From the IMG/VR virus record IMGVR_UViG_2802429245_000005: a DNA stretch of 41,556 nucleotides; one strand, 5' to 3'. Both the position numbers and the translations under genes were made by a program. Below are positions 3,685 to 41,556 of the stretch, piece after piece. Source of the stretch: a virus. Its lineage: Duplodnaviria; Heunggongvirae; Uroviricota; Caudoviricetes. Under the pieces are notes generated by a model. It had not been told where the DNA came from. It saw only the letters and a list, made by a program, of their open reading frames with translations, and ran no database searches. Each line of letters opens with the position of its first letter. Positions within the stretch are counted from its first letter, which is position 1.

Positions 3685-6426
3685 TTACACAGCACAAATC
3701 CTGATCGTTGCTGTGATATCAGTTTCAGTGCCATTATTGAGATATAACCTACCGCCTACAATTGACATCCCAATTTTGGTAGAAACTTCTTCATCTGCAG
3801 ATGTCACCACCACGTTTGTTTTATTGTAATTACCAAGCGGAGATTCATCAGTCGAATGCCCTGGCCTCAATATCATTCCTACACCTGCAAAGAAATTAGG
3901 GTTCCCATTATTTATAACATCCACACAATAAGATAATGCGCTTTTACTAAGTGGGATGGATTGACTTGTATGTGCCTTAACCCACATTTCCCATACGTAT
4001 TCACTTTTACGTATCGCCCCCTCACATGAACCAGATGCATGGAATAACTTTCCTGATGATACAGTGTTATTGGTGCCAACAAGAATCATCTGATTTCCAC
4101 CACCAAAGCCAAAGTTATCACCAAGAGATGGTCCACCATTAATCCTTAACATATATGCATCAGTACTGCCTGATGAGGCGTCAGAGTTATCTATATATAC
4201 AGTGCAATCACTTATAAGAACGCCATCAATCTTATCTGGCGCAACAGTATTAGTTTGGACAACGACGAACTCTCTGGTGGTAGATTTTGCCGAACAACCT
4301 TTAATAATTGTTGGTGTTTCAAGAGTATATGTTTGAGTAATAAAAATGAAATTACTAGGACGAAGCTTCCGATTAACAGCATTTGTTGCTTTCCACCATT
4401 TATTGCTTGATTCGGTTGTTTCGCTAAAGCCATCAATATAGTGAGTATCGGTAATAGTAATTCCGCTACCATAATACAAACGAATCGGAAGGTTGCTAAA
4501 TCCTCTAATCTCGCAACCAGATACTATCTCATTAAAACCACGTATAGTTGCGCCATAAAAACAGTCAACTGCCACATTGTCTTTATATTTAGACTCTGCG
4601 GCACCACCATGACTACCAAACCCATAGGAAAATTCAGTCCATCCTTCCGATGGAAATATAATCCCACCAGTATAACCAGTTCCGCCACCACGCATTGTAA
4701 TGTTGGTTACATTATTGTAGAGAGAACTCCAGTTACTCCCTCCAATATCAACACCACGCCTACAACAAGATGCATTGATATTGTCCACAGTGCAGTAACT
4801 GCTATTGGAAACAGAAACAGCATTACCTGTACCACCATCACCATTGAAAACTCTATTGATTCCATACAGAGATGTATCACGAACAGTGCATCTTAAGCAG
4901 CCTAACAAGGTAATCCCAGCATTCGGGAAATTTTCCACACTAGCGAAACTGGCAATACCGTTTACGCAATATTCGAAGACAACCCCATCATAAGCTTTTT
5001 GTCCGCTAGTTGCATTGGTAACTAACCCGTGTATCGTCCCAACATGAAAATCTCCAGAAATATTAAATGTAGCAGGATAGACAGCCCAGGCCTCAGCTTG
5101 CCTAACCAAACGAAATGTATCTCCTGCAGCAGGTTTATTTGGGAATCCAGTGTCAGCATTACTACCAATAGTAAATGTTTTTGTGTCATCATCATATGCT
5201 GTAACCATTTTGGTTATACCAGCATTATCTCCCGTTAATCCAAGAATTTTATAGAGTGCATCACGAGGTGGTGATGTCACTGAGAAATTTGTAGATGTAA
5301 ATGATTGCCCACTAGATGCGCCAGTAACTGTAACTGTAATATTCCCTCCTGAACGGTAGTAATAATATGCATCCTGATCTAATGTCACATTATTTCCACT
5401 AAGTGAAACGACTTCAACAATTTGCCCTTCCTGCCAACTTCCTCGGTTATCTCCACGAACAAGGTGGTTATTACGAATAACAAGCAAATCTCCGACAGAA
5501 ATATCAGACACATCATCAAGAGTCACAGTCTTTTCGCCCAATGATATATCTCTCGTTATGAAATTATGCAATTTAGTACTTGCAATTCCACCAAGCTTTA
5601 TTGCTGAACCTTCATATCCTACAACATTATTTGTGCAGAGCAATTCAACCTTTCCTGATGCCACCCAATCGAAGCAACCATATGGAATGGAAATATCTAT
5701 TTGTGAAAACAGGTACTTTCCTGCTGTCCATTCCAAACGCTTTCCGTTAGATGCGCAGTAAATGATGGCATTTGTTATTGCGTCTGTATCGTCAGTAATG
5801 CCATCCCCTTTTGCACCAAAATCGCGAACATTGACGATATCCCGCATCTTATCCTGGAACGTTCTGTATACTGCTCCAGAACCATACTGAATAAACAAAC
5901 CAAAACCACCAACAACTCCGGCGATTGCAGCATCGACATAATTACGCATTGAGCGATTATTTACAGCATCCTGCTCAAGTGATGGATCTGCAAGGTTAGA
6001 AATTCTGTTTTGTTTTGCATCGTAATATTTTGCAAGCAGAGAGGGCTTCATCAATGCACGTCTGAACCACCCAAAACATTGCTGGATCAGCATCGTCAGA
6101 TAGTCAAAGGCATCCTCATGCACTTCGGGGAAAAATTTTCCCTGATTGCGAAGGTCTGTCTCCTGCACTACATCAAGCACACGATCTATCGTAATTCGCC
6201 ATCCAGCAGCAAGCGGAGACGGAAGAACCACAGAACCGCCACTATAAGTGCCCGCCCCAGTTACCGTATAACCGGTATCCAGAACCAATTCTGTTACGTT
6301 CCCGTTCAGGTCAGACACCTGAACAACCAGGTCTGATTTTCTGAAAATTCGAAAAGTATACGGAAACGATGTCGTAACGCCGTTACCTGTGTATTCGTTG
6401 TGGTCAACTTCGGTTGAGACCGTCAT
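3685..6426 (-). CDS. Tailspike with N-terminal virion-attachment domain and pectate-lyase-like beta-helix receptor-binding/depolymerase domain
   Basis: 913 aa. RBS GGAG 9 nt upstream of ATG (6424-6426). VRDFGAKGDGITDDTDAI motif typical of right-handed beta-helix glycanases. Downstream two-thirds is AT-rich by eye. Confidence 0.85.
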   Translation of the reverse strand: MTVSTEVDHNEYTGNGVTTSFPYTFRIFRKSDLVVQVSDLNGNVTELVLDTGYTVTGAGTYSGGSVVLPSPLAAGWRITIDRVLDVVQETDLRNQGKFFPEVHEDAFDYLTMLIQQCFGWFRRALMKPSLLAKYYDAKQNRISNLADPSLEQDAVNNRSMRNYVDAAIAGVVGGFGLFIQYGSGAVYRTFQDKMRDIVNVRDFGAKGDGITDDTDAITNAIIYCASNGKRLEWTAGKYLFSQIDISIPYGCFDWVASGKVELLCTNNVVGYEGSAIKLGGIASTKLHNFITRDISLGEKTVTLDDVSDISVGDLLVIRNNHLVRGDNRGSWQEGQIVEVVSLSGNNVTLDQDAYYYYRSGGNITVTVTGASSGQSFTSTNFSVTSPPRDALYKILGLTGDNAGITKMVTAYDDDTKTFTIGSNADTGFPNKPAAGDTFRLVRQAEAWAVYPATFNISGDFHVGTIHGLVTNATSGQKAYDGVVFEYCVNGIASFASVENFPNAGITLLGCLRCTVRDTSLYGINRVFNGDGGTGNAVSVSNSSYCTVDNINASCCRRGVDIGGSNWSSLYNNVTNITMRGGGTGYTGGIIFPSEGWTEFSYGFGSHGGAAESKYKDNVAVDCFYGATIRGFNEIVSGCEIRGFSNLPIRLYYGSGITITDTHYIDGFSETTESSNKWWKATNAVNRKLRPSNFIFITQTYTLETPTIIKGCSAKSTTREFVVVQTNTVAPDKIDGVLISDCTVYIDNSDASSGSTDAYMLRINGGPSLGDNFGFGGGNQMILVGTNNTVSSGKLFHASGSCEGAIRKSEYVWEMWVKAHTSQSIPLSKSALSYCVDVINNGNPNFFAGVGMILRPGHSTDESPLGNYNKTNVVVTSADEEVSTKIGMSIVGGRLYLNNGTETDITATIRICAV

Positions 6427-7792: not shown

Positions 7793-7816
7793 GGGCACTG
7801 GCAAAATCCAGTGCCG
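7793..7816 (+). other. Perfect 8-bp stem-loop (GGCACTGG / CCAGTGCC) in the antirepressor leader
   Basis: Read directly; lies between the operator at 7744 and the terminator at 7851. Confidence 0.5.
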
Positions 7817-7850
7817 GGATTGGCGTCCCGGATTACTAAAAGGCGCATTC

Positions 7851-7870
7851 ACCGCGCAAGCGGTTTTTTT
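7851..7870 (+). terminator. Intrinsic terminator-like hairpin plus T7 tract in the antirepressor leader
   Basis: ACCGC-GCAA-GCGGT followed by TTTTTTT. Confidence 0.5.
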
Positions 7871-8027
7871 ATGCGTATAGCACGGCCACATTCGTATTAT
7901 GGTGGGCTGTGTGGGGGCACCGAAAGGTGCGCCGGGTCCTTTTAGCCGGTTACGCCAACCCTGCACAGTTCACCACCAACCGATTGGCGTCGGTAGTGGT
8001 GATTAACCAGACTAAAAGGTAACCACT

Positions 8028-26822: not shown

Positions 26823-26899
26823 GTGGCATTAGCTCAGCTGGACAGAGCAACCGCCTTCTAAGCGGTTGGTCGCAGGTTCGAATCCTGCATGCCACGCCA
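26823..26899 (+). tRNA. tRNA-Arg, anticodon UCU (reads AGA), phage-encoded
   Basis: Cloverleaf read directly: acceptor GTGGCAT/ATGCCAC, D-arm GCTC-AGCTGGACA-GAGC, anticodon stem ACCGC/GCGGT with loop CTTCTAA, T-arm GCAGG-TTCGAAT-CCTGC, discriminator G and encoded CCA. Confidence 0.85.
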
Positions 26900-34284: not shown

Positions 34285-35086
34285 CCCACACCCCTTCTAT
34301 CCAGTCAGTGTTATTCCAGTCAAGCTCATCGCTTTTCCCGACGTTTTTTGATTTTCCCCTGATATGATTTACGTGCCTGGCGAATTTTTGTTCCCACTGA
34401 ACCTGCGTGAACACTTTGCCCTCAGCCATCCAGTAATCCCGGAATGCAGCAAGTTCAGCAGGTGTAAATTCCGGTTCCGGCAGGGCCGTTCCCCACAGCG
34501 CAGCACGCCGTCGAAAATCCGGCGACGGATGCCAGCCATCGGTCATCGGAAATTTCCCAATAGGTTCACTCAGGCCATCCAGAAATGCAGGTTCTGCCAC
34601 CTGCAACGGCGTACCGTTCGCTTCACTGGTCGGATCACTCTCGCGCGCGTGTGCTATGTGTGGGGTTTTATATATATCTTCCTCTTCCTCTTCCTCTGGT
34701 AACTCTTTTTGTAACGCTGTTGGCGTTACTTTTTGCGTTACTCGTTTTCGATGCTCTGCCACTCTTCTATTCGTAAGTGCACGTTTTTTCGATGATTCTC
34801 CATTGTGTCGCTCAAAGTTTGGAAGAATTAGTTTGCCGTCATGATAAGCAAGCCATCCGACGCTAATGAGGGCGTCAGCAAATCCTGTAATAAAAGCGAG
34901 TCTATCAAGTACTCCTTTTGTAACGCTGCCAGCGTTACCGTCTATTGTTTGCTGGTCAGCCCATGCCCATATACGAACCAGCTTTCCAAGAACAGCATCT
35001 GGATCAATACCCAGAATTTCTGCTATCTGAAAAATTTCAGGTTTATCAGGAGTGATAACTTCAACCTTAATCCAGCTGCTTGCCAT
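34256..35086 (-). CDS. Replication initiation/organiser protein with DnaT-like C-terminal domain (O-equivalent)
   Basis: C-terminus GKFPMTDGWHPSPDFRRRAALWGTALPEPEFTPAELAAFRDYWMAEGKVFTQVQWEQKFARH matches the DnaT C-terminal domain. GAGGGG before ATG at 35084-35086. Confidence 0.7.
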   Translation of the reverse strand: MASSWIKVEVITPDKPEIFQIAEILGIDPDAVLGKLVRIWAWADQQTIDGNAGSVTKGVLDRLAFITGFADALISVGWLAYHDGKLILPNFERHNGESSKKRALTNRRVAEHRKRVTQKVTPTALQKELPEEEEEEDIYKTPHIAHARESDPTSEANGTPLQVAEPAFLDGLSEPIGKFPMTDGWHPSPDFRRRAALWGTALPEPEFTPAELAAFRDYWMAEGKVFTQVQWEQKFARHVNHIRGKSKNVGKSDELDWNNTDWIEGVWDEINSRTSQ

Positions 35087-35279
35087 AGGTTTCCCCTCTT
35101 GCACTCTTTAGTGCACAAGCAAATTCATTACGATGGCGGTTGGCGCTATTCATTGCACATTCAACACATGTTCCGTTCAGAACATACCTTTCAGAGAGAT
35201 GGCCGTGACGGCACCGCTTTCCTGTGAAATAGCGATTTAACCCGGCTTTTGCGGCCTCCATTCTGGTTACTATCTTCAA
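35067..35279 (-). CDS. Small Cys/His-rich zinc-binding-like protein
   Basis: 70 aa with CRHGH...CVEC. Start is either TTG 35279 (AAGGGG upstream) or ATG 35261. Confidence 0.45.
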   Translation of the reverse strand: MKIVTRMEAAKAGLNRYFTGKRCRHGHLSERYVLNGTCVECAMNSANRHRNEFACALKSARGETYGKQLD

Positions 35280-35357
35280 TTTTTCCGCCCCTTTTTGTTA
35301 TTGATATTGGCTATTTTGCACAATTGGAAAATTTGATCAACCAGATTTGGTTTTTTA

Positions 35358-35372
35358 TTACCTTTGAGGTAC
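35358..35372. promoter_or_regulatory. Operator-like site TTACCTTTGAGGTAC (one mismatch)
   Basis: Between the terminator after the cro-like gene and the 70-aa zinc-binding-like gene. Confidence 0.4.
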
Positions 35373-35380
35373 GAATAGAT

Positions 35381-35406
35381 ATGAAAAGACCGCCGGATGG
35401 CGGTCT
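35381..35406 (-). terminator. Rho-independent terminator after the cro-like gene
   Basis: 8-bp perfect stem AGACCGCC / GGCGGTCT with a U-rich tail on the minus strand, 22 nt after the cro-like stop. Confidence 0.6.
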
Positions 35407-35427
35407 ACAGAGGGTTGTGGATGGATA

Positions 35428-35658
35428 TCATGAGTAGAAGAAGTATGCCAGTTCTGCTTTTGAGCGCAGCCATTGTCTTGTTTTACAGGCTTTAAAAAGC
35501 CCATTCATCAATACCTTACCTGGCATTTTGCGCTTACCTGTTAAGTGAGTCTGGATATAGTGACTCGTCGTTCCGGCTTCCTGTGCGAAGGCTTCACGCT
35601 CATCCGGAGTAAGTGCAAGCCAGTGCTTTTTGAAATCGAAATGTCCGTTATCGCTCAT
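35428..35658 (-). CDS. Cro-like small HTH regulator, first gene of the leftward early operon
   Basis: 76 aa with HTH-like LTPDEREAFAQEAGTTSHYIQTHLTGKR. Divergent from the repressor-like gene. Intrinsic terminator directly downstream. Confidence 0.6.
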   Translation of the reverse strand: MSDNGHFDFKKHWLALTPDEREAFAQEAGTTSHYIQTHLTGKRKMPGKVLMNGLFKACKTRQWLRSKAELAYFFYS

Positions 35659-35694
35659 AGCTATTGCCTGATATTTATTTCAGATAATAAATAT

Positions 35695-35709
35695 TCACCC
35701 ATAAGGTAA
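35695..35709. promoter_or_regulatory. Operator-like site TCACCCATAAGGTAA (one mismatch) in immunity region
   Basis: First of three sites between the divergent cro-like (start 35658) and repressor-like (start 35813) genes. Confidence 0.45.
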
Positions 35710-35725
35710 CAAAAATCAAGGATAG

Positions 35726-35740
35726 TTACCTATGAGGTGC
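35726..35740. promoter_or_regulatory. Operator-like site TTACCTATGAGGTGC (two mismatches) in immunity region
   Basis: Second site; degenerate right half. Confidence 0.35.
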
Positions 35741-35742
35741 AT

Positions 35743-35757
35743 TTACCTGTTGGGTAA
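35743..35757. promoter_or_regulatory. Palindromic operator-like site TTACCTGTTGGGTAA in immunity region
   Basis: Exact motif; third site, nearest the repressor-like gene. Confidence 0.6.
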
Positions 35758-35812
35758 TATTGCTTTAAATTGAATCATCTACTGATTCATATATGAGGCG
35801 ATTTTCCAGAAA

Positions 35813-36397
35813 ATGAAAAGTATCCAGGACGTCCGCAGGCAAAATCTCAACGACTTGATCGACCGTGAATTCAATGGTGTTCAGACGCGGATGGCAGAAA
35901 AACTTGGAACTCAGGCAAATCTGGTAAACCGCTGGGCTCTTGGCAAGAAGGTTATCGGCGACCAGGTTGCGCGAAAAATTGAAGCTGCCGCCAATAAACC
36001 CCGTAACTGGCTTGATATCGATCGCTCGCTTTCTCAGGAAGGTTTTCAGCCTGTCGGCCCAAGCGACATTGGTCAGCTGGCGGCTCACAACCTGGAACGC
36101 TGGATGAGCGAAAGCCGCGACCTTTCAACACAGGGAAAACTTCACCGCGCATCCGGCGTCGCCCAGGTAACAATCAGCCGCCTGTTAAACAATGAGGTCA
36201 GCGTTTCCATTTCCACCCTGGAGAATGTTGCATCCGCATTCGGGCGTCACGGCTATGAATTACTGATTCACCCGCACGACCCTGCGACCATCAACTATGA
36301 CCGCTCGCGCTACGCATTGTTACCCGAAACCGAGAAAGCAAAGATCGAAAGTTACATTGAATTTGTCATCAACCAGAACGAAAAAAATAAACAATAA
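35813..36397 (+). CDS. Repressor-like protein with two XRE-type HTH domains (candidate lysogeny repressor)
   Basis: 194 aa with two HTH-like segments and no S24 peptidase domain. Monocistronic: strong terminator at 36418-36444. Operator motifs cluster between it and the cro-like gene. Confidence 0.7.
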   Translation: MKSIQDVRRQNLNDLIDREFNGVQTRMAEKLGTQANLVNRWALGKKVIGDQVARKIEAAANKPRNWLDIDRSLSQEGFQPVGPSDIGQLAAHNLERWMSESRDLSTQGKLHRASGVAQVTISRLLNNEVSVSISTLENVASAFGRHGYELLIHPHDPATINYDRSRYALLPETEKAKIESYIEFVINQNEKNKQ

Positions 36398-36417
36398 AAC
36401 TATAGTTTTCAGCAAGT

Positions 36418-36444
36418 AAGCCGCCTCATGGCGGCTTTTTTATT
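36418..36444 (+). terminator. Rho-independent terminator after the repressor-like gene
   Basis: AAGCCGCC-TCAT-GGCGGCTT followed by TTTTATT. Confidence 0.75.
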
Positions 36445-36454
36445 GCCATCAAGA

Positions 36455-36469
36455 TTACCTTATGGGTAA
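36455..36469. promoter_or_regulatory. Palindromic operator-like site TTACCTTATGGGTAA
   Basis: Exact motif about 20 bp upstream of TTGACA (36489-36494), ahead of the recombination operon. Confidence 0.6.
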
Positions 36470-36488
36470 TTTTTTTAGCTCATATCTA

Positions 36489-36516
36489 TTGACATCAAAC
36501 CAAATACGCATAATCA
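36489..36516 (+). promoter_or_regulatory. Sigma70-like promoter candidate for the recombination operon
   Basis: TTGACA at 36489-36494 and -10-like CATAAT (36509-36514) or TAATCA (36511-36516). Spacer length is non-optimal, so assignment is tentative. Confidence 0.4.
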
Positions 36517-36531
36517 TTACCCCAACGGTAA
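36517..36531. promoter_or_regulatory. Palindromic operator-like site TTACCCCAACGGTAA
   Basis: Exact motif immediately downstream of -10-like CATAAT/TAATCA (36509-36516); paired with the site at 36455. Confidence 0.6.
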
Positions 36532-36550
36532 CAGACCGAGGTAACAAATT

Positions 36551-36703
36551 ATGCAGTGGAAAATCATCAACGGTTGGTACTGCGTTACTGCATGCGGATT
36601 CATGAGCTGGAAGTTCCGCACCTTACAGGAAGGCATTAAGTGGGCTTTCGTCAGCAAAGAAGCTCGCGATGTGGCCAACGATAACGAGATATGGGAGGGC
36701 TGA
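36551..36703 (+). CDS. Unannotated small ORF (50 aa)
   Basis: Absent from the supplied ORF track. GAGG 10 nt before ATG at 36551. Sits between the promoter/operator region and the next gene, ending 3 nt before its start. Confidence 0.3.
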   Translation: MQWKIINGWYCVTACGFMSWKFRTLQEGIKWAFVSKEARDVANDNEIWEG

Positions 36704-36705
36704 TA

Positions 36706-37005
36706 ATGAACGTTAATCAGCAGAAAAATCTTCAAAAAATCATGCTGGCATTCGACAAGGACTACCGCCTGTCAGAACAGCTATATGACCGACAAGTTGA
36801 ACTGATTGAGAGCATCCGACTTCATCAACTGTCCTCAACTTTCGACGTTGTAACAGGCAAAGGCGTTCGTCAGGAAGTACTGGAGGCTGCTAAAGACAGC
36901 CCTGAGTTCGAAGAACTGATGGATGCCTACCGGCGCGAGGCAATGGCAATTATCGCCCGCTGGGATCTGGCGGATCAGCTTGATGGACAGAGGGACGCGG
37001 CATGA
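36706..37005 (+). CDS. Small protein of the recombination operon
   Basis: GGGAGGG 7 nt before ATG at 36706 (track start 36691). Stop overlaps the exonuclease start. Confidence 0.5.
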   Translation: MNVNQQKNLQKIMLAFDKDYRLSEQLYDRQVELIESIRLHQLSSTFDVVTGKGVRQEVLEAAKDSPEFEELMDAYRREAMAIIARWDLADQLDGQRDAA

Positions 37006-37823
37006 AAGCGGGAATTTATTTCGACATCAGCAACGAAGACTACCACGCCGGTGACGGCGTGAGTAAATCGCAACTGGACATGGTTGCCAAGAATCCGGCG
37101 CTTCTTAAATGGGTTCAGGCAGCACCAGAAGACGAAGAGAAAAAGTCTGCACTGGATATGGGAACCGCATTGCACTGTCTGCTTCTGGAGCCTGGAGAGT
37201 TCGACAAACGCTTCATTGTTTCACCGAAATTCGAACGTCGGACGAAACAAGGTAAAGCTGACGAAGAGGCATTTCTTCGTGATGTGGCGGATATGGGGAT
37301 TACGGTACTTGATGCCGAGCAGTGGCGGAAACTGGAGCTGATGCGTGATAGCGCAATGGCTCACCCGGCGGCACGCTGGATGCTGGAAGCACCTGGTTAC
37401 TGCGAAGCATCAATGTACTGGAACGATGAAGATACTGGTGAGTTGTGCCGCATTCGTCCAGACAAATGGCTGAACGAGCACAACGTGATCGTCGACGTGA
37501 AAAAGGTTGCAGATATGGACCGTTTTGCACGCCACATCGAGGAATTCCGCTACCACGTGCAGGACGCAATGTACCGCGAAGGCGCAATGAGGGTTACTGG
37601 TCAGCCGCATGGTTTTTTCTTTCTTGCCGTGAGCGAAAGCATTGATTGTGGTCGATATCCGGTACGCGTGTTCGAGCTGGATGCGCCGGATGTCGATGCC
37701 GGGCACGCTCTGTTCCGCCGGGATCTGAATACCTATCACGAATGCCGCATCAACGATGAGTGGGGCGGAGTGGAAATTATTAAACGCCCTGACTGGGCAC
37801 GCAAACAGGATATGTACATATGA
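37002..37823 (+). CDS. PD-(D/E)xK recombination exonuclease (YqaJ/lambda-Exo-like)
   Basis: Acidic/Lys catalytic-type motifs (IVDVKK, D...E.K). Directly upstream of, and overlapping, the RecT-like gene. Confidence 0.7.
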   Translation: MKAGIYFDISNEDYHAGDGVSKSQLDMVAKNPALLKWVQAAPEDEEKKSALDMGTALHCLLLEPGEFDKRFIVSPKFERRTKQGKADEEAFLRDVADMGITVLDAEQWRKLELMRDSAMAHPAARWMLEAPGYCEASMYWNDEDTGELCRIRPDKWLNEHNVIVDVKKVADMDRFARHIEEFRYHVQDAMYREGAMRVTGQPHGFFFLAVSESIDCGRYPVRVFELDAPDVDAGHALFRRDLNTYHECRINDEWGGVEIIKRPDWARKQDMYI

Positions 37824-38761
37824 GCAACGACATCGCAAACATCAATGCACCAGTAGACACAGCAATCGCTGGAACTGCTGCAACTATTTTCAGCCCAGAC
37901 GGCTTGAACCAACTGATGAAATTCGCCGAGGTAATGGCGCAAAGCCGCGTAACGGTACCGGCGCACCTCGCCGGGAAACCAGCTGATTGCATGGCCGTGG
38001 CAATGCAGGCTGCGCAGTGGGGAATGAACCCGTTTGCCGTGGCTCAGAAAACCCATGTTGTGAACGGCACGCTAGGTTATGAAGCCCAATTAGTAAACGC
38101 AGTTATCTCAACGATGTCGCCAACAAAAGATCGCATCAACTACGAGTGGTTCGGGCCGTGGGAACGCGTGATCGGTAAGTTTGTTGAGAAAACATCCAAA
38201 AACGGCAATCCATATATCGCACCAGGCTGGACTCTAAAAGACGAAGAAGGCTGCGGTGTTCGCGTATGGGCAACCATGAAGGGCGAGGATCAACCTCGAG
38301 TGCTTGAGTTAATGCTGTCTCAAGCACAGGTAAGAAACTCCACACTTTGGGCCAGTGATCCGAAACAACAACTCGCATACCTTGCGACAAAACGCTGGTC
38401 TCGCTTGCACTGTCCTGACGTAATCATGGGCGTCTACACACCAGACGAATTACAGGAAACGGCACCGCGCGTTGAGCGAGACATTACTCCGCAAACGACC
38501 ACTGCTGCGGGAATGAACAGTCTGATCAACGCTAAACAAGTGAAAAAGCCTGATGAGCAAACGCGTAAAGCGGATAGCCGTGATCCAGAAGAAATGCTGA
38601 TGGCCTTTACCAGCGCAGCGATGAATTACAGCACTGTCTCCGAACTGGATAAAGCTTACAAATACATTGCACAAAAACTTTCAGATGATGACGAACTGCT
38701 GGCAAAAGCCACCGACGTTTACAGCGTTCGTCGGGAAGAATTAAACGAAACATCTATGTAA
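37820..38761 (+). CDS. recT: RecT-family single-strand annealing protein
   Basis: 313 aa. ATG overlaps the exonuclease stop. Conserved RecT-like core (AQWGMNPFA...TLGYEAQLVNAV). Confidence 0.8.
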   Translation: MSNDIANINAPVDTAIAGTAATIFSPDGLNQLMKFAEVMAQSRVTVPAHLAGKPADCMAVAMQAAQWGMNPFAVAQKTHVVNGTLGYEAQLVNAVISTMSPTKDRINYEWFGPWERVIGKFVEKTSKNGNPYIAPGWTLKDEEGCGVRVWATMKGEDQPRVLELMLSQAQVRNSTLWASDPKQQLAYLATKRWSRLHCPDVIMGVYTPDELQETAPRVERDITPQTTTAAGMNSLINAKQVKKPDEQTRKADSRDPEEMLMAFTSAAMNYSTVSELDKAYKYIAQKLSDDDELLAKATDVYSVRREELNETSM

Positions 38762-38810
38762 CCACCACCGCGGCGCCACGCGCGCCGCACTGCAACCAAG
38801 AGAGGTATTT

Positions 38811-39059
38811 ATGAAAGGTGCATTAGGTAAGAAGGAACTCCTGGCGGTGGTGCCACTGTCATGGAGCACTATCGACCGCATGGAGCGCGCAGGGGAATTT
38901 CCTAAACGCTGGTATATCACTGACAAACGCTGCGCATGGAACCGTGATGAAGTTGAGCGTTGGCTTGATGAACGTCAGGCAGCAAGCCCGGCAGAGTTCC
39001 AGGGTAAAAAGCCTCCTGTTCAGCAACGTGTATATCGTCCTGTGAGCAACGCTGCATGA
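38811..39059 (+). CDS. AlpA-family DNA-binding protein / excisionase-like
   Basis: AGAGAGG RBS. Winged-HTH signature LLAVVPLSWSTIDRMERAGEFPKRWYITDKRCAWNRDEVERWL typical of AlpA/Xis. Confidence 0.7.
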   Translation: MKGALGKKELLAVVPLSWSTIDRMERAGEFPKRWYITDKRCAWNRDEVERWLDERQAASPAEFQGKKPPVQQRVYRPVSNAA

Positions 39060-39172
39060 GTGTGCTGCTAAGGCACTGGAGCAAATGGTCAGGATGGTAC
39101 TTATTCCTGGCCTCTGTTTCAGCATGGCTTTATCTGCTGGCATTAATTTTCAGAGAGGGTTGGATTAAGTGA
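39056..39172 (+). CDS. Unannotated 38-aa single-TM peptide ORF
   Basis: ATG overlaps the AlpA-like stop (ATGA) and its TGA overlaps the GTG of the next gene. Peptide MSVLLRHWSKWSGWYLFLASVSAWLYLLALIFREGWIK. Confidence 0.3.
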   Translation: MSVLLRHWSKWSGWYLFLASVSAWLYLLALIFREGWIK

Positions 39173-39468
39173 AAAAGTTAAGCCGACTTGAAAAATATCA
39201 CATGAACAAGGTTTCAATGCGCAGTCCGTCAAAGATTGTCGCCGTTACTCCTGCGGCGATAGAGATCGAAAAACGCGCGATTGAAAGAGAGAAAAAAGGG
39301 CAGTTCCGCATTGCCGCTCACCTTTGGCTTCAGTGTATGGATGTTGCTTCTGGTGATGTTGAGCGTGCGAGGATCGCGGTTCGCAGGGACCAATGTATCA
39401 CAAAAGGTAACGGCCTTCGCCGTGGCGACTATAGCGGCATAGGATGTTGTGGGGTGGTTTATGACTAA
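39169..39468 (+). CDS. Small regulator-like protein (ANR-like) preceding the methyltransferase
   Basis: GTG start with AGAGAGGG upstream. 99 aa. Family assignment from recalled motif AHLWLQCMDVA only. Confidence 0.5.
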   Translation: MKKLSRLEKYHMNKVSMRSPSKIVAVTPAAIEIEKRAIEREKKGQFRIAAHLWLQCMDVASGDVERARIAVRRDQCITKGNGLRRGDYSGIGCCGVVYD

Positions 39469-40111
39469 GAAATACACACTAATCTATGCAGATCCACCCT
39501 GGGTATACCGGGACAAAGCCGCAGATGGTAATCGCGGTGCCGGTTTTAAATATCCGGTTATGAGTGTGCTGGACATCTGCCGCCTTCCTGTGTGGGATTT
39601 GGCCGATGAAAACTGTCTGTTGGCCATGTGGTGGGTGCCAACACAACCACTCGAAGCACTAAAAGTTGTTGAAGCCTGGGGATTCCGTCTGATGACCATG
39701 AAGGGATTCACGTGGATAAAATGTGGTAGTCGACAACCAGATAAACTGGTTATGGGTATGGGACACATGACTCGCGCCAATAGTGAAGATTGCCTGTTTG
39801 CGGTAAAGGGAAAACTACCTCCGCGCATTAATGCAGGTATCGTTCAGTCATTTACCGCACCGCGGCTTGAGCATTCAAGAAAACCAGATATTGTTCGTGA
39901 AAAACTTGTGCAATTGTTAGGCGATGTTTCTCGCATTGAACTGTTCGCCCGCCAGACGTCTCATGGCTTCGATGTTTGGGGTAATCAGTGCGAAGACCCG
40001 GCAGTGCAACTACACCCTGGATACGCGTTGGATATTGCCGGATTAACAAATGCATTCAGCAATGCTCCGCTGTCACCAACAGACAACCAGGGGCGGGAGC
40101 GTGCAGCATGA
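39461..40111 (+). CDS. MT-A70-family N6-adenine DNA methyltransferase
   Basis: Catalytic DPPW motif in MTKKYTLIYADPPWVY. About 216 aa. Start taken at ATG 39461; the track starts at GTG 39449. Confidence 0.75.
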   Translation: MTKKYTLIYADPPWVYRDKAADGNRGAGFKYPVMSVLDICRLPVWDLADENCLLAMWWVPTQPLEALKVVEAWGFRLMTMKGFTWIKCGSRQPDKLVMGMGHMTRANSEDCLFAVKGKLPPRINAGIVQSFTAPRLEHSRKPDIVREKLVQLLGDVSRIELFARQTSHGFDVWGNQCEDPAVQLHPGYALDIAGLTNAFSNAPLSPTDNQGRERAA

Positions 40112-40302
40112 ACAGGGCATCACCAGCAGATTTAAGGAAATGCCTTGAAACTGCAAACATGCTTGCACACAGCGGGATCAGGTTTGTTCCAATTCCCGCT
40201 GTCACTGATGCTGAATTTGCAACGCTGTCAGCAATATTCGCAGACAAAATTGAATCACTGGCAGCAGAAGCCGAGATGGAAGAAAATCAGCAGAACTATT
40301 AA
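40108..40302 (+). CDS. Small protein downstream of the methyltransferase
   Basis: ATG overlaps the methyltransferase stop (ATGA at 40108-40111). 64 aa. Ends 4 nt before the convergent integrase stop. Confidence 0.45.
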   Translation: MNRASPADLRKCLETANMLAHSGIRFVPIPAVTDAEFATLSAIFADKIESLAAEAEMEENQQNY

Positions 40303-40305
40303 ACG

Positions 40306-41556
40306 TTATTCTCCCGCCATCCACTTCTCAAACTTCGACGGGGAGAACGGAATCAAATCCGTATGCTCCCCGTTAATCCAGGAATCAATCATATCGGCCC
40401 ACTGCTGCAACATGTAGGCGCGCTGTCTGGCGTATTCCGCTTTGTTATATACGGCGCGCACACTTTTCTGCTCATGTGCCAGGGCCTTTTCAATCCAGTC
40501 TGAAGGATAACCAGCCTCATGCAACAACGTACTGGCTGTACGGCGCATATCGTGTACGGTGAAGTCCTGAATATGCTCACCATCTTCATTTATTATTTTC
40601 ACCGTTCTGTCGATCAGAGAGTTCAGCGCGGCATTAGATAATGGCTTCCGGAAGTTGTAACGACCAGGAACCAGATATTCACTTCCACCAGCGCACATCT
40701 GCAACCCGACCAATATATCCTGTGCCTGTTTAGGCAGGTAAATAACGTGCGCCCGGCTTCCCTTCATGCGGTCTGAAGGAATTGTCCATGTCCATTTTTT
40801 AAAATCTATTTCATCCCACGTTGCATTGGTGAATTCGCCTTTACGAACCATGGTGATAAGCACCAGCTTTAAAGCCATTTTCATAGTGCCCATAGCACCA
40901 ATGGCATCCAGCGTGCGGAAGAACAGGCCAACTTCTTCTGGTGTCAGTGTTCGCTCTCGTGGTTTAAATATGGCGATAGACGAAGGTTTAATGTCAGCCG
41001 CAGGATTAAACAAACCATGACCACGGTCATTGGCGTGACGGTATACGCTGCTGATGATCTCCCTGGCCTGCACTGCTGTTGCCCGGCCACCGCGTTCGAC
41101 AATCCGGTCACACAAATCACGAACCATCGATGTGGTAATTTCAGCCATCATTTTGTTGCCAAGAACCGGAAGTATGTCACGGTCGATCACTGCCTTCTTC
41201 ATTGCGCGGGTACTTTCAGCAAGGATGACGTGTTTCATATAACTGTCGGTATGTACCGTAAACGTCTCGGCACCACGAATCTTTTTGATACCGTCACGTT
41301 TAGCCGCAGCCGGTGACTGGCCTGCTTTAAGCAGCTTTTTTGCAGCAATCAGTTCTTCCCGCGCTTCTGCCAGGCTGATACCGTCACGCCCATACTGCCC
41401 GATTACCAGTGTTTCGCGGCGACCGTTGATACGGTAGTCATAGCGAAATGAGACCGTACCTGACGTAAGCACAGCTACATACAGCCCGTCACGATCGGAG
41501 ACTTTGTACAGTTTGTCCTGCGGCTTGAGGTTTTTTAATTTTGTATCGGTAAGCAC
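40306..41556 (-). CDS. int: Tyrosine integrase (P4-like family); 5' end at or beyond the window edge
   Basis: N-terminus (M)LTDTKLKNLKPQDKLYKVSDRDGLYVAV matches the P4-type integrase N-terminal domain. C-terminal catalytic region with HDMRRT and Y. ORF runs to the last base; the first codon in the window is GTG. Confidence 0.85.
   Translation of the reverse strand: MLTDTKLKNLKPQDKLYKVSDRDGLYVAVLTSGTVSFRYDYRINGRRETLVIGQYGRDGISLAEAREELIAAKKLLKAGQSPAAAKRDGIKKIRGAETFTVHTDSYMKHVILAESTRAMKKAVIDRDILPVLGNKMMAEITTSMVRDLCDRIVERGGRATAVQAREIISSVYRHANDRGHGLFNPAADIKPSSIAIFKPRERTLTPEEVGLFFRTLDAIGAMGTMKMALKLVLITMVRKGEFTNATWDEIDFKKWTWTIPSDRMKGSRAHVIYLPKQAQDILVGLQMCAGGSEYLVPGRYNFRKPLSNAALNSLIDRTVKIINEDGEHIQDFTVHDMRRTASTLLHEAGYPSDWIEKALAHEQKSVRAVYNKAEYARQRAYMLQQWADMIDSWINGEHTDLIPFSPSKFEKWMAGE

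Follow-up and report, generated by a model that had tools for sequence, protein, structure and literature searches.

Two small open reading frames, ORF1 (50 codons) and ORF2 (38 codons), are very probably genuine protein-coding genes of a repressor-controlled early-left operon in a temperate podophage of the phiV10/epsilon15 type. The sequences show that the frames are conserved, syntenic and under purifying selection, that starts and stops overlap and that ORF2 is hydrophobic; translation as such, the way coupling would work, membrane topology and function are inferred. The window (the whole stretch of DNA that was analysed, 41,556 nucleotides) is a phiV10/epsilon15-like (Uetakevirus) prophage of E. 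coli; phiV10 is 98% identical to the region, which is present in 564 of 5426 complete E. coli genomes. The initial annotation had placed ORF1 at 36551-36703 and ORF2 at 39056-39172, which we confirmed, and had called both frames unannotated. This holds for the ORF track that was supplied and, for ORF2, for the PGAP record inspected, in which ORF1 is called and ORF2 omitted, but not for the RefSeq records of phiV10 and epsilon15, where both are already listed as hypothetical proteins. Exact look-up also found both sequences in public protein sets: these are already catalogued genes and the result is ordinary. Since 101 ORFs of at least 25 aa occur within a 6.5 kb stretch around ORF1 and ORF2, their size alone is within chance and the case for both is conservation.

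Operon layout and selection on the two frames

The operon and its control region carry the following features:

36418..36444, + strand: intrinsic terminator from a terminator scan (8-bp stem, 6 GC pairs, T run); the equivalent phiV10 site is annotated as a terminator
36455..36469, no strand: operator-like inverted repeat TTACCTTATGGGTAA, lying 5' of the promoter's -35 hexamer; epsilon15 repressor-binding sites are annotated at equivalent places
36489..36517, + strand: sigma-70-type early-left promoter (TTGACA, 17 nt, AATCAT)
36517..36531, no strand: operator-like inverted repeat TTACCCCAACGGTAA, beginning 34 nt before the ORF1 ATG
36538..36541, + strand: Shine-Dalgarno GAGG of ORF1, 9 nt before the ATG, read from the sequence
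36551..36703, + strand: ORF1, first cistron of the early-left operon (ATG 36551, TGA 36701-36703, 50 codons)
36706..37005, + strand: gene for a 99-aa protein (epsilon15 gp36 family, phrog_856), 2 nt past the ORF1 stop
37002..37823, + strand: PD-(D/E)XK exonuclease (RecE-like), its start sharing ATGA with the gp36 stop
37820..38761, + strand: RecT-family recombinase, its start sharing ATGA with the exonuclease stop
38811..39059, + strand: AlpA-family regulator or excisionase-like gene, 82 aa (Pfam PF05930, 24.2 bits against a cutoff of 21; phrog_66)
39056..39172, + strand: ORF2, between the AlpA-like and PerC-like genes (ATG 39056, TGA 39170-39172, 38 codons)
39155..39158, + strand: GAGG inside ORF2 codons 33-35 (R-E-G), 10 nt 5' of the PerC-like start, read from the sequence
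39169..39468, + strand: PerC-family gene, 99 aa from GTG (Pfam PF06069; phrog_868 matched at 99 of 99 positions)

The terminator follows the repressor gene (35813-36397) and is predicted to divide the repressor transcript from the early-left operon. The promoter matches at 10 of 12 positions and was the top promoter-like site across 35200-40400 in a consensus scan. The order of repressor, operator, ORF1, recombination module, AlpA and a membrane ORF of 33-42 aa is kept in remote relatives.

Lack of conservation had been named beforehand as the result that would speak against the two frames. Both were open, with near-constant length, in every one of the 14 (ORF1) and 12 (ORF2) distinct intact sequences compared, taken from at least eight genera including Escherichia, Salmonella, Enterobacter, Klebsiella, Citrobacter and Scandinavium, and tblastn found each of the two in Uetakeviruses of the first four. 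The proposed frames had a pN/pS of 0.25 for ORF1 (bootstrap 0.14-0.37) and 0.32 for ORF2 (bootstrap 0.19-0.49), with zero stops in either set; the AlpA control gave 0.23. The four other frames reached 1.19-1.65 and the antisense frame that shares wobble positions ~0.47, all with stops. The suggestion that these are real small proteins with coupled translation draws support from comparative evidence: open frames, in-frame purifying selection, recurring start/stop overlaps and, for ORF2, a single helix that is kept.

ORF1, a predicted soluble protein at the head of the operon

ORF1 corresponds to PhiV10p39, epsilon15 gp37 and phrog_898. It matched the phrog_898 profile over its full length (residues 1-50 on positions 1-50 of 50, E 1.9e-38), is 100% identical to PhiV10p39 (YP_512294.1) and 79% identical to epsilon15 gp37 (NP_848245.1), which has about equal length. 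Both counterparts occupy the same position, first gene past the repressor and operators, with no structural difference. Relatives of ORF1 are encoded on 391 IMG/VR contigs, and homologues in remote relatives, 46-51 aa long and down to 36% identical, without exception follow a TTACC-N5-GGTAA operator as the first gene and stand at the front of the recombination module. A further match to the ORF1 profile from the full-library search, P0030, is a 1929-aa repetitive protein and was judged spurious.

The GAGG ribosome-binding site ascribed to ORF1 was located at its listed position, and an SD-like motif precedes ORF1 in 20/20 relatives, while a TTACC-N4-5-GGTAA repeat begins 27-34 nt 5' of its start in 19/20. 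At the other end, ORF1 had been said to stop 3 nt before the next ATG: the close spacing stands, but the gap is two bases (TA) and the ATG lies at 36706, a discrepancy of one base. In relatives with gp36 next to ORF1, the two genes are 2-4 nt apart or overlap by GTGA. The gp36-family gene occupies the place of the Gam gene in one remote relative (L027).

When remote homologues were included, AlphaFold2 modelled ORF1 as three strands (residues 2-6, 9-14 and 18-22) plus one helix (25-49) at pLDDT 74. The predicted product is a small cytoplasmic domain with this fold. An earlier model as one long helix, from a shallow 15-sequence alignment, reached only pLDDT 55 and was dropped.

These properties also bear on whether ORF1 acts as a regulatory leader peptide of the early-left operon, through the act of its translation or its nascent chain, and not as a free-standing protein. 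Such a leader could well be the first and a very short cistron at a fixed 27-34 nt from the operator, and the first 25 codons are indeed the most conserved part of ORF1 (pN/pS 0.165). Yet the entire length of 46-51 aa is kept, a compact fold is predicted once diverse sequences are added (the pLDDT of 74 given above), the terminator scan found nothing resembling a terminator in the gap that follows ORF1, and the structure of the ORF1 mRNA is not above that of shuffled controls (z = 0.28), unlike what an attenuator needs. We consider a leader function quite unlikely.

The annotators of phage Tyrion made a different choice at this site, leaving out ORF1 and calling an antisense ORF (BI095_gp39), which in the window is a frame of 72 aa at 36517-36735 on the minus strand. 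That this is the true gene, or that the small frames arose by chance in non-coding or RNA-coding sequence, where small ORFs are abundant, is extremely improbable. In some relatives the antisense frames are interrupted by stops, and their pN/pS values are 0.48 and 1.48-1.60, of which the lower is the mirror effect expected when wobble positions are shared with the coding frame. A consensus scan found no minus-strand promoter-like site here and, against an RNA element, the region had zero Rfam matches and no excess folding energy.

ORF2, a predicted membrane peptide between AlpA and PerC

ORF2 corresponds to PhiV10p35, epsilon15 gp32 and phrog_17484, again matching its profile over the full length (residues 1-38 on positions 1-38 of 38, E 4.7e-27). 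It is identical to a 'putative membrane protein' of YDC107_2 and to a protein of E. coli CE10, 97% identical to the PhiV10p35 'membrane protein' (YP_512290.1) and 79% identical to epsilon15 gp32 (NP_848240.1); in phiV10 and epsilon15, the gene likewise lies between AlpA and PerC and overlaps both in the way seen here. Relatives were sought by tblastn, IMG/VR scans and exact look-up, and 316 IMG/VR contigs encode one. The peptide has a basic N-terminus and a single predicted transmembrane helix, and it ends in a short EGWI(K/R) tail. The single helix that had been predicted for it falls on its one hydrophobic stretch (residues 14-32, Kyte-Doolittle 19-residue mean 1.92) and is kept even in divergent versions of 32-42 aa. 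In remote relatives, the start of the transmembrane ORF of 33-42 aa and the AlpA stop always overlap as ATGA. Highly diverged peptides at the ORF2 position (32 aa in BUCT554, 33 aa in L027, 39 aa in L029 and 42 aa in L026 and L030) all combine a basic N-terminus with one helix (Kyte-Doolittle mean 2.0-2.5).

The coupling overlaps proposed for ORF2 are present at both ends, as an ATGA (39056-39059) shared with the stop of the AlpA-like gene and a GTGA (39169-39172) shared with the GTG start of the PerC-like gene. Across relatives the first junction is ATGA, or GTGA in Klebsiella, and the second, GTGA in the window, is ATGA. Overlapping or abutting stop and start codons that are conserved in relatives, as expected of translationally coupled cistrons, are found at these junctions and at that of ORF1 and gp36. 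The PerC start varies by annotator, lying at ATG 39202 in RefSeq phiV10 and at ATG ~39217 in PGAP. Since relatives carry an ATG exactly at GTG 39169 of the window and the extra N-terminal residues are conserved, the ORF2/PerC overlap is real, and the start of the PerC-like gene is placed at GTG 39169. The GAGG at 39155..39158 is likely its Shine-Dalgarno sequence, and the surrounding AGAGA(A/G)GG(C/T)TGG stretch is conserved among relatives.

A longer PerC of 122-124 aa, of which the ORF2 region would be the 5' end, has been annotated in PAT1, BUCT711, ST512-KPC3phi13.3 and VB_ST_E15; gene callers picked this form where the frame is open ~75 nt further upstream, as it is in several Salmonella and Klebsiella relatives. 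In the window, a TAA (39166-39168) stands immediately before the GTG. Across 12 distinct sequences the extended frame has 6 stops and a pN/pS of 1.43, and its residues differ radically among relatives, whereas changes in the ORF2 frame are conservative. There is very little chance that the long form is the true gene.

ORF2 was also assessed in samples drawn without regard to it. Among 75 E. coli contigs picked irrespective of ORF2, 9 synonymous variants stood against 9 non-synonymous or nonsense variants, a ratio of ~0.33 (a rough estimate from ~28 synonymous and ~86 non-synonymous sites); 2 of the 75 carry nonsense alleles. We also retrieved 14 loci via AlpA alone. All six intact AlpA-PerC prophages in this set (from Superficieibacter, Pseudocitrobacter, Citrobacter and Scandinavium) have a 38-codon ORF2 with 4-nt overlaps at both ends. 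Pseudescherichia vulneris lacks ORF2, its PerC directly following AlpA; K. pneumoniae ATCC 13883 has ORF2 in a fused or deleted state, and Ca. Erwinia dacicola carries a frameshift in it. As judged from these loci, ORF2 is dispensable in some lineages.

A rival reading makes ORF2 a pure translational bridge with an inert peptide, through which ribosomes have to pass on their way from AlpA to PerC. The 4-nt overlaps at both ends of ORF2 in nearly all relatives, the PerC ribosome-binding site inside it, the nonsense alleles and the P. vulneris arrangement, in which PerC has its own spacer and start, all agree with a bridge. A bridge, however, needs an open frame and no specific peptide, and the pN/pS of ORF2 remains 0.40 after removal of the tail that encodes the ribosome-binding site; versions diverged beyond recognition still keep the basic N-terminus and the one helix. 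Part of the conservation of the tail may come from the embedded PerC site and not from the peptide. We regard an inert bridge as unlikely and favour an ORF2 that encodes a functional membrane peptide.

Candidate functions and use of the annotation

Both products would be made only on infection or once the prophage repressor is removed. With its own GAGG just past the second operator, ORF1 would be the first product of derepression. All relatives have it at the front of the recombination module, whose order is a Gam-like protein or gp36, the exonuclease and RecT. ORF2 would be translated through termination-reinitiation, its start sharing ATGA with the AlpA stop, and ribosomes that terminate at its GTGA would pass to the PerC-like gene, making ORF2 both a small inner-membrane protein and a link that ties PerC translation to AlpA translation. 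We found no ribosome-profiling, proteomic or tagging evidence for either ORF in the papers searched; the peptide sequences had no match in papers, and neither the vB_EcoP_ZX5 paper nor the CFT073 Ribo-seq preprint mentions the two genes. Lysogens keep the operon repressed, and neither ORF would be visible in published data taken from uninduced cells.

Neither ORF matched Pfam, NCBIfam or PADLOC, and a profile search of PDB sequences gave nothing significant. In size, ORF1 is similar to lambda Kil (47 aa), lambda CIII (54 aa), P22 Kil and P22 Arf (47 aa), whose genes immediately precede gam/bet/exo or erf in a leftward operon under repressor control; in the remote relative L027, ORF1 comparably stands before a Gam-family gene. 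This is a likeness of position and nothing more, and the lambda and P22 genes lie several genes into their operons whereas ORF1 is the first. Homology to these proteins was rejected, with hhalign probabilities of 0.2% and 0.35% for lambda and P22 Kil (the PHROG search gave no Kil family even at E up to 1), 0.14% for Arf and 0.48% for CIII. As a tentative guess from its position, ORF1 may bind a host or phage protein in early development, in an accessory or host-takeover role comparable to those of Kil, CIII and Arf.

AcrZ and MgrB exemplify small single-pass proteins by which bacteria modulate larger proteins of the membrane, and a further group is formed by membrane peptides of phages that act in exclusion or host takeover. 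ORF2 shares with these two groups a length below 50 aa, a single helix, a basic N-terminus and aromatics near the helix ends, with no homology claimed; unlike stand-alone genes, it is embedded in its operon by two 4-nt overlaps. Type I toxin-like peptides (Hok, TisB, Ibs and similar) come from a stand-alone gene that has its own promoter and an overlapping antisense RNA. ORF2 lies inside an operon with 4-nt overlaps at both ends; in its vicinity (~39000-39200) a consensus scan, which can miss an antisense RNA, gave no promoter-like site on either strand, and there were zero Rfam matches. Host takeover or exclusion could be the role of ORF2. The PHROG label 'moron / host takeover' for phrog_17484 is based on membrane prediction only.

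A combined reading, possible but doubtful, would make ORF1 a key early factor (for example a lock on the lytic decision, a means of disarming host nucleases or defences, or an aid to the exonuclease and RecT) and ORF2 an AlpA-tied membrane factor of host takeover or exclusion. If it were true, ORF1 or ORF2 would represent a new functional class of phage micro-protein, without a homologue of known function. Across immunity types, all the epsilon15-like phages that were compared have the gp37-family protein in the position of first early-left product, and this position directly under repressor control makes ORF1 a reasonable knockout target.

The main use of the analysis is in annotation. The two ORFs are conserved early proteins of a widespread temperate phage group that includes phiV10 and epsilon15, current understanding being unchanged, and substitution analysis shows that two hypothetical micro-genes are under protein-level selection. 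Given the 564 of 5426 E. coli genomes with the region, the omission of the 38-aa membrane gene that the inspected PGAP record shows could be widespread. The start of the PerC-like gene is set at the GTG, and the long PerC and antisense-ORF annotations of some phages are rejected.

Small cistrons of the early operon

The window carries an E. coli prophage whose gene order is that of the phiV10 and epsilon15 RefSeq records (genus Uetakevirus). The stretch 36400-39500 shares 98% identity with Escherichia phage phiV10; among 5426 complete E. coli genomes, 564 carry it, nearly always on the chromosome. The matched phiV10 segment exceeds the query by one base. The exonuclease and RecT are annotated differently: these form one fused 1761-nt CDS in the phiV10 RefSeq record (window 37002-38761; phiV10 locus L001, 2101-3861) and two genes with an ATGA overlap at 37820-37823 in the window and the PGAP record. 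The region reads as follows, the operon being transcribed rightward in the order listed.

35813-36397, repressor with a double helix-turn-helix, a terminator next
Between the repressor terminator and ORF1, promoter with operators
36551-36703, rightward, ORF1, 50 codons, ATG 36551 to TGA 36701-36703, with GAGG at 36538-36541, 9 nt upstream
36706-37005, rightward, gp36, 99-aa gene product
Next, rightward, PD-(D/E)XK exonuclease, then RecT
38811-39059, rightward, AlpA-family gene
39056-39172, rightward, ORF2, 38 codons, ATG 39056 to TGA 39170-39172
39169-39468, rightward, PerC-family gene
Next, rightward, MT-A70 methyltransferase
40306-41556, strand opposite to the operon, integrase

The cistrons abut throughout. 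The ATG that follows ORF1, at 36706, leaves 2 nt between ORF1 and gp36; gp36/exonuclease and exonuclease/RecT are joined by ATGA; the AlpA stop lies within the ATGA (39056-39059) that opens ORF2, and the GTGA that closes ORF2 (39169-39172) contains the GTG opening the PerC frame; PerC and the methyltransferase overlap by 8 nt. The initial annotation described ORF1 as a 50-aa frame with a GAGG ribosome-binding site abutting the next gene, and ORF2 as a 38-aa frame with one predicted transmembrane helix, overlapping the AlpA stop and the next start; both descriptions are accurate, and ORF2 has a single hydrophobic stretch at residues 14-32. The statement that the two are unannotated did not hold for public records, as both are already catalogued as hypothetical proteins: ORF1 is PhiV10p39, epsilon15 gp37 and, in the PGAP record inspected, WP_001198620.1; ORF2 corresponds to PhiV10p35 ('membrane protein') and to epsilon15 gp32, and an identical sequence from phage YDC107_2 and from E. 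coli CE10 is on record as 'putative membrane protein'.

The best sigma-70-type site within 5 kb (TTGACA-17-AATCAT, 36489-36517) is flanked on both sides by inverted repeats (36455-36469 and 36517-36531) that resemble those of the divergent promoter region 35693-35758; all have the form TTACC-N5-GGTAA, and the equivalent epsilon15 positions are annotated as repressor sites. In 19 of 20 relatives the start of such a repeat lies 27-34 nt upstream of the ORF1 ATG, and this near-fixed spacing suggests that ORF1 would be the first thing translated once the early operon is derepressed. The repeat is kept even where the repressors are only ~40% identical. Because no good ribosome-binding site precedes it, ORF2 is likely translated by reinitiation once AlpA terminates.

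Conservation in relatives

Both proteins match PHROG families end to end (ORF1, phrog_898, E 1.9e-38; ORF2, phrog_17484, E 4.7e-27). By tblastn against 50,697 phage records, 36 Uetakevirus-type records of Escherichia, Salmonella, Enterobacter and Klebsiella carry ORF1 and 35 carry ORF2, at identities down to ~70% and ~66%, respectively; relatives are encoded on 391 (ORF1) and 316 (ORF2) IMG/VR contigs. ORF1 was intact in all 19 loci first examined (47-50 aa), with a Shine-Dalgarno-like motif in every one. A word-indexed search returned 29 clusters of ORF1 relatives, all enterobacterial, and HMMER run in full over 1.84 billion representatives returned relatives of 46-51 aa down to 36% identity. 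Five remote loci share a layout of repressor, TTACC-N5-GGTAA operator, ORF1 homologue and variable recombination module; the module always has an exonuclease and, where the contig is long enough, RecT followed by an AlpA gene. Extra genes intervene before the gp36-like gene in some relatives (L012, 684-1955; L014, 750-1896; L026, 4001-5207), so that ORF1 keeps its linkage with the operator and promoter but not with gp36. The insert in the remote loci L026 and L030 is a 348-aa coiled-coil protein.

For ORF2, we fetched loci through the AlpA protein, one genome per species, to avoid selecting by the ORFs themselves. A 38-codon ORF2 overlapping both neighbours was present in all six intact AlpA-PerC prophages (Superficieibacter, Pseudocitrobacter, two Citrobacter, two Scandinavium). 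Elsewhere it has changed or decayed: in K. pneumoniae ATCC 13883 (L016, ~4246-4330) it has become fused to PerC through a deletion, in Ca. Erwinia dacicola (L020, ~4246-4340) its start frame is lost to a deletion of 10 nt, and Enterobacter phage BUCT554 has a divergent hydrophobic 32-aa ORF at this position. Pseudescherichia vulneris lacks it, PerC following AlpA by 11 nt (L023, ~4250-4275), so ORF2 is not indispensable. In the remote ORF1 loci, where the contig reaches, the AlpA stop shares an ATGA with the start of a hydrophobic ORF of 33-42 aa.

Constraint on the reading frames and competing annotations

Finding ORFs of this length means little by itself, as 35000-41556 is overlapped by 101 ORFs of 25 aa or more; the case for ORF1 and ORF2 rests on comparison with relatives. 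We calculated pN/pS by the Nei-Gojobori method for every pair of distinct sequences (14 for ORF1, 12 for ORF2) in six frames, with bootstrap over codons. The proposed frames, free of stops, gave 0.25 (0.14-0.37) for ORF1 and 0.32 (0.19-0.49) for ORF2, with 0.23 for the control gene AlpA. All five other frames contain stops; the two other sense and two antisense frames gave 1.36-1.65 (ORF1) and 1.19-1.43 (ORF2), and the wobble-sharing antisense frame gave 0.48 and 0.46, intermediate values that are the expected mirror effect. Constraint is strongest in the first 25 codons of ORF1 (0.165), and ORF2 stays at 0.40 (0.23-0.63) without the tail that also encodes the PerC ribosome-binding site. Among 75 E. 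coli IMG/VR contigs selected without regard to ORF2, we counted 9 synonymous and 9 non-synonymous variants, two of the latter nonsense (two contigs), a ratio of ~0.33 with site numbers only roughly estimated. ORF2 could instead be a pure translational bridge between AlpA and PerC, but the protein-level constraint, and a helix that is kept in versions whose sequences are unrecognisable, weaken this reading. The comparative evidence supports the initial interpretation of ORF1 and ORF2 as real, coupled small proteins.

The useful by-products are annotation corrections, beginning with the absence of ORF2 from the PGAP record inspected. Annotators place the PerC start differently (PGAP, ATG ~39217; phiV10 RefSeq, ATG 39202; a 122-124 aa form starting within ORF2 in some phage records). 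ORF2 codons 33-35 (AGA GAG GGT) include a GAGG 10 nt before GTG 39169, relatives have an ATG exactly at this GTG, and the added residues are kept (M-x-K-L-T/S-R-L-E/Q-K-Y-H); the 99-aa form from GTG 39169 (39169-39468) is therefore the right one, and the starts in PGAP and phiV10, which give shorter proteins, are wrong. The long PerC annotation, which extends 5' over ORF2 in another frame, is wrong: it is closed by TAA 39166-39168 in the window, and across relatives has six stops and a pN/pS of 1.43. Also wrong is the antisense ORF annotated in place of ORF1 in phage Tyrion, since the antisense frames do less well than the sense frame and are interrupted by stops. In NCBIfam, the PerC-like protein has a weak match to the ANR (AraC negative regulator) subfamily NF033650 (23.6 bits, cutoff 32).

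An RNA element was rejected, with no Rfam family in the region and folding no better than shuffled controls (z 0.28 and -1.49 for the two stretches). Elsewhere in the window, Rfam matches above the gathering score are an isrK Hfq-binding RNA (7795-7870), a C4 antisense RNA (7895-7980) and a tRNA gene (26823-26896).

Possible roles

Neither protein has a match in Pfam, NCBIfam or PADLOC, and ORF1 has nothing significant among PDB sequences. AlphaFold2 with remote homologues predicts strands at ORF1 residues 2-6, 9-14 and 18-22 and a helix at 25-49 (pLDDT 74); structure searches gave generic matches only, and the two cysteines are not kept in remote relatives. In position, ORF1 recalls the small lambda and P22 proteins beside recombination genes (Kil, CIII, Arf), and its homologue directly precedes a Pfam Gam gene in the remote relative L027. 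With hhalign probabilities of 0.1-0.5% against each of Kil, CIII and Arf, the likeness is positional only. As a working guess, ORF1 may be a small early protein-binding factor and ORF2 a small inner-membrane protein with its N-terminus inside; we consider it rather unlikely that either will prove to serve a specific host-directed function of this sort.

The gp36 family (36706-37005) sits where L027 has its Pfam Gam host-nuclease inhibitor (3819-4106, 46.8 bits). It is a candidate Gam analogue, with hhalign probabilities of 37% against the L027 Gam protein and 1.6% against lambda Gam.
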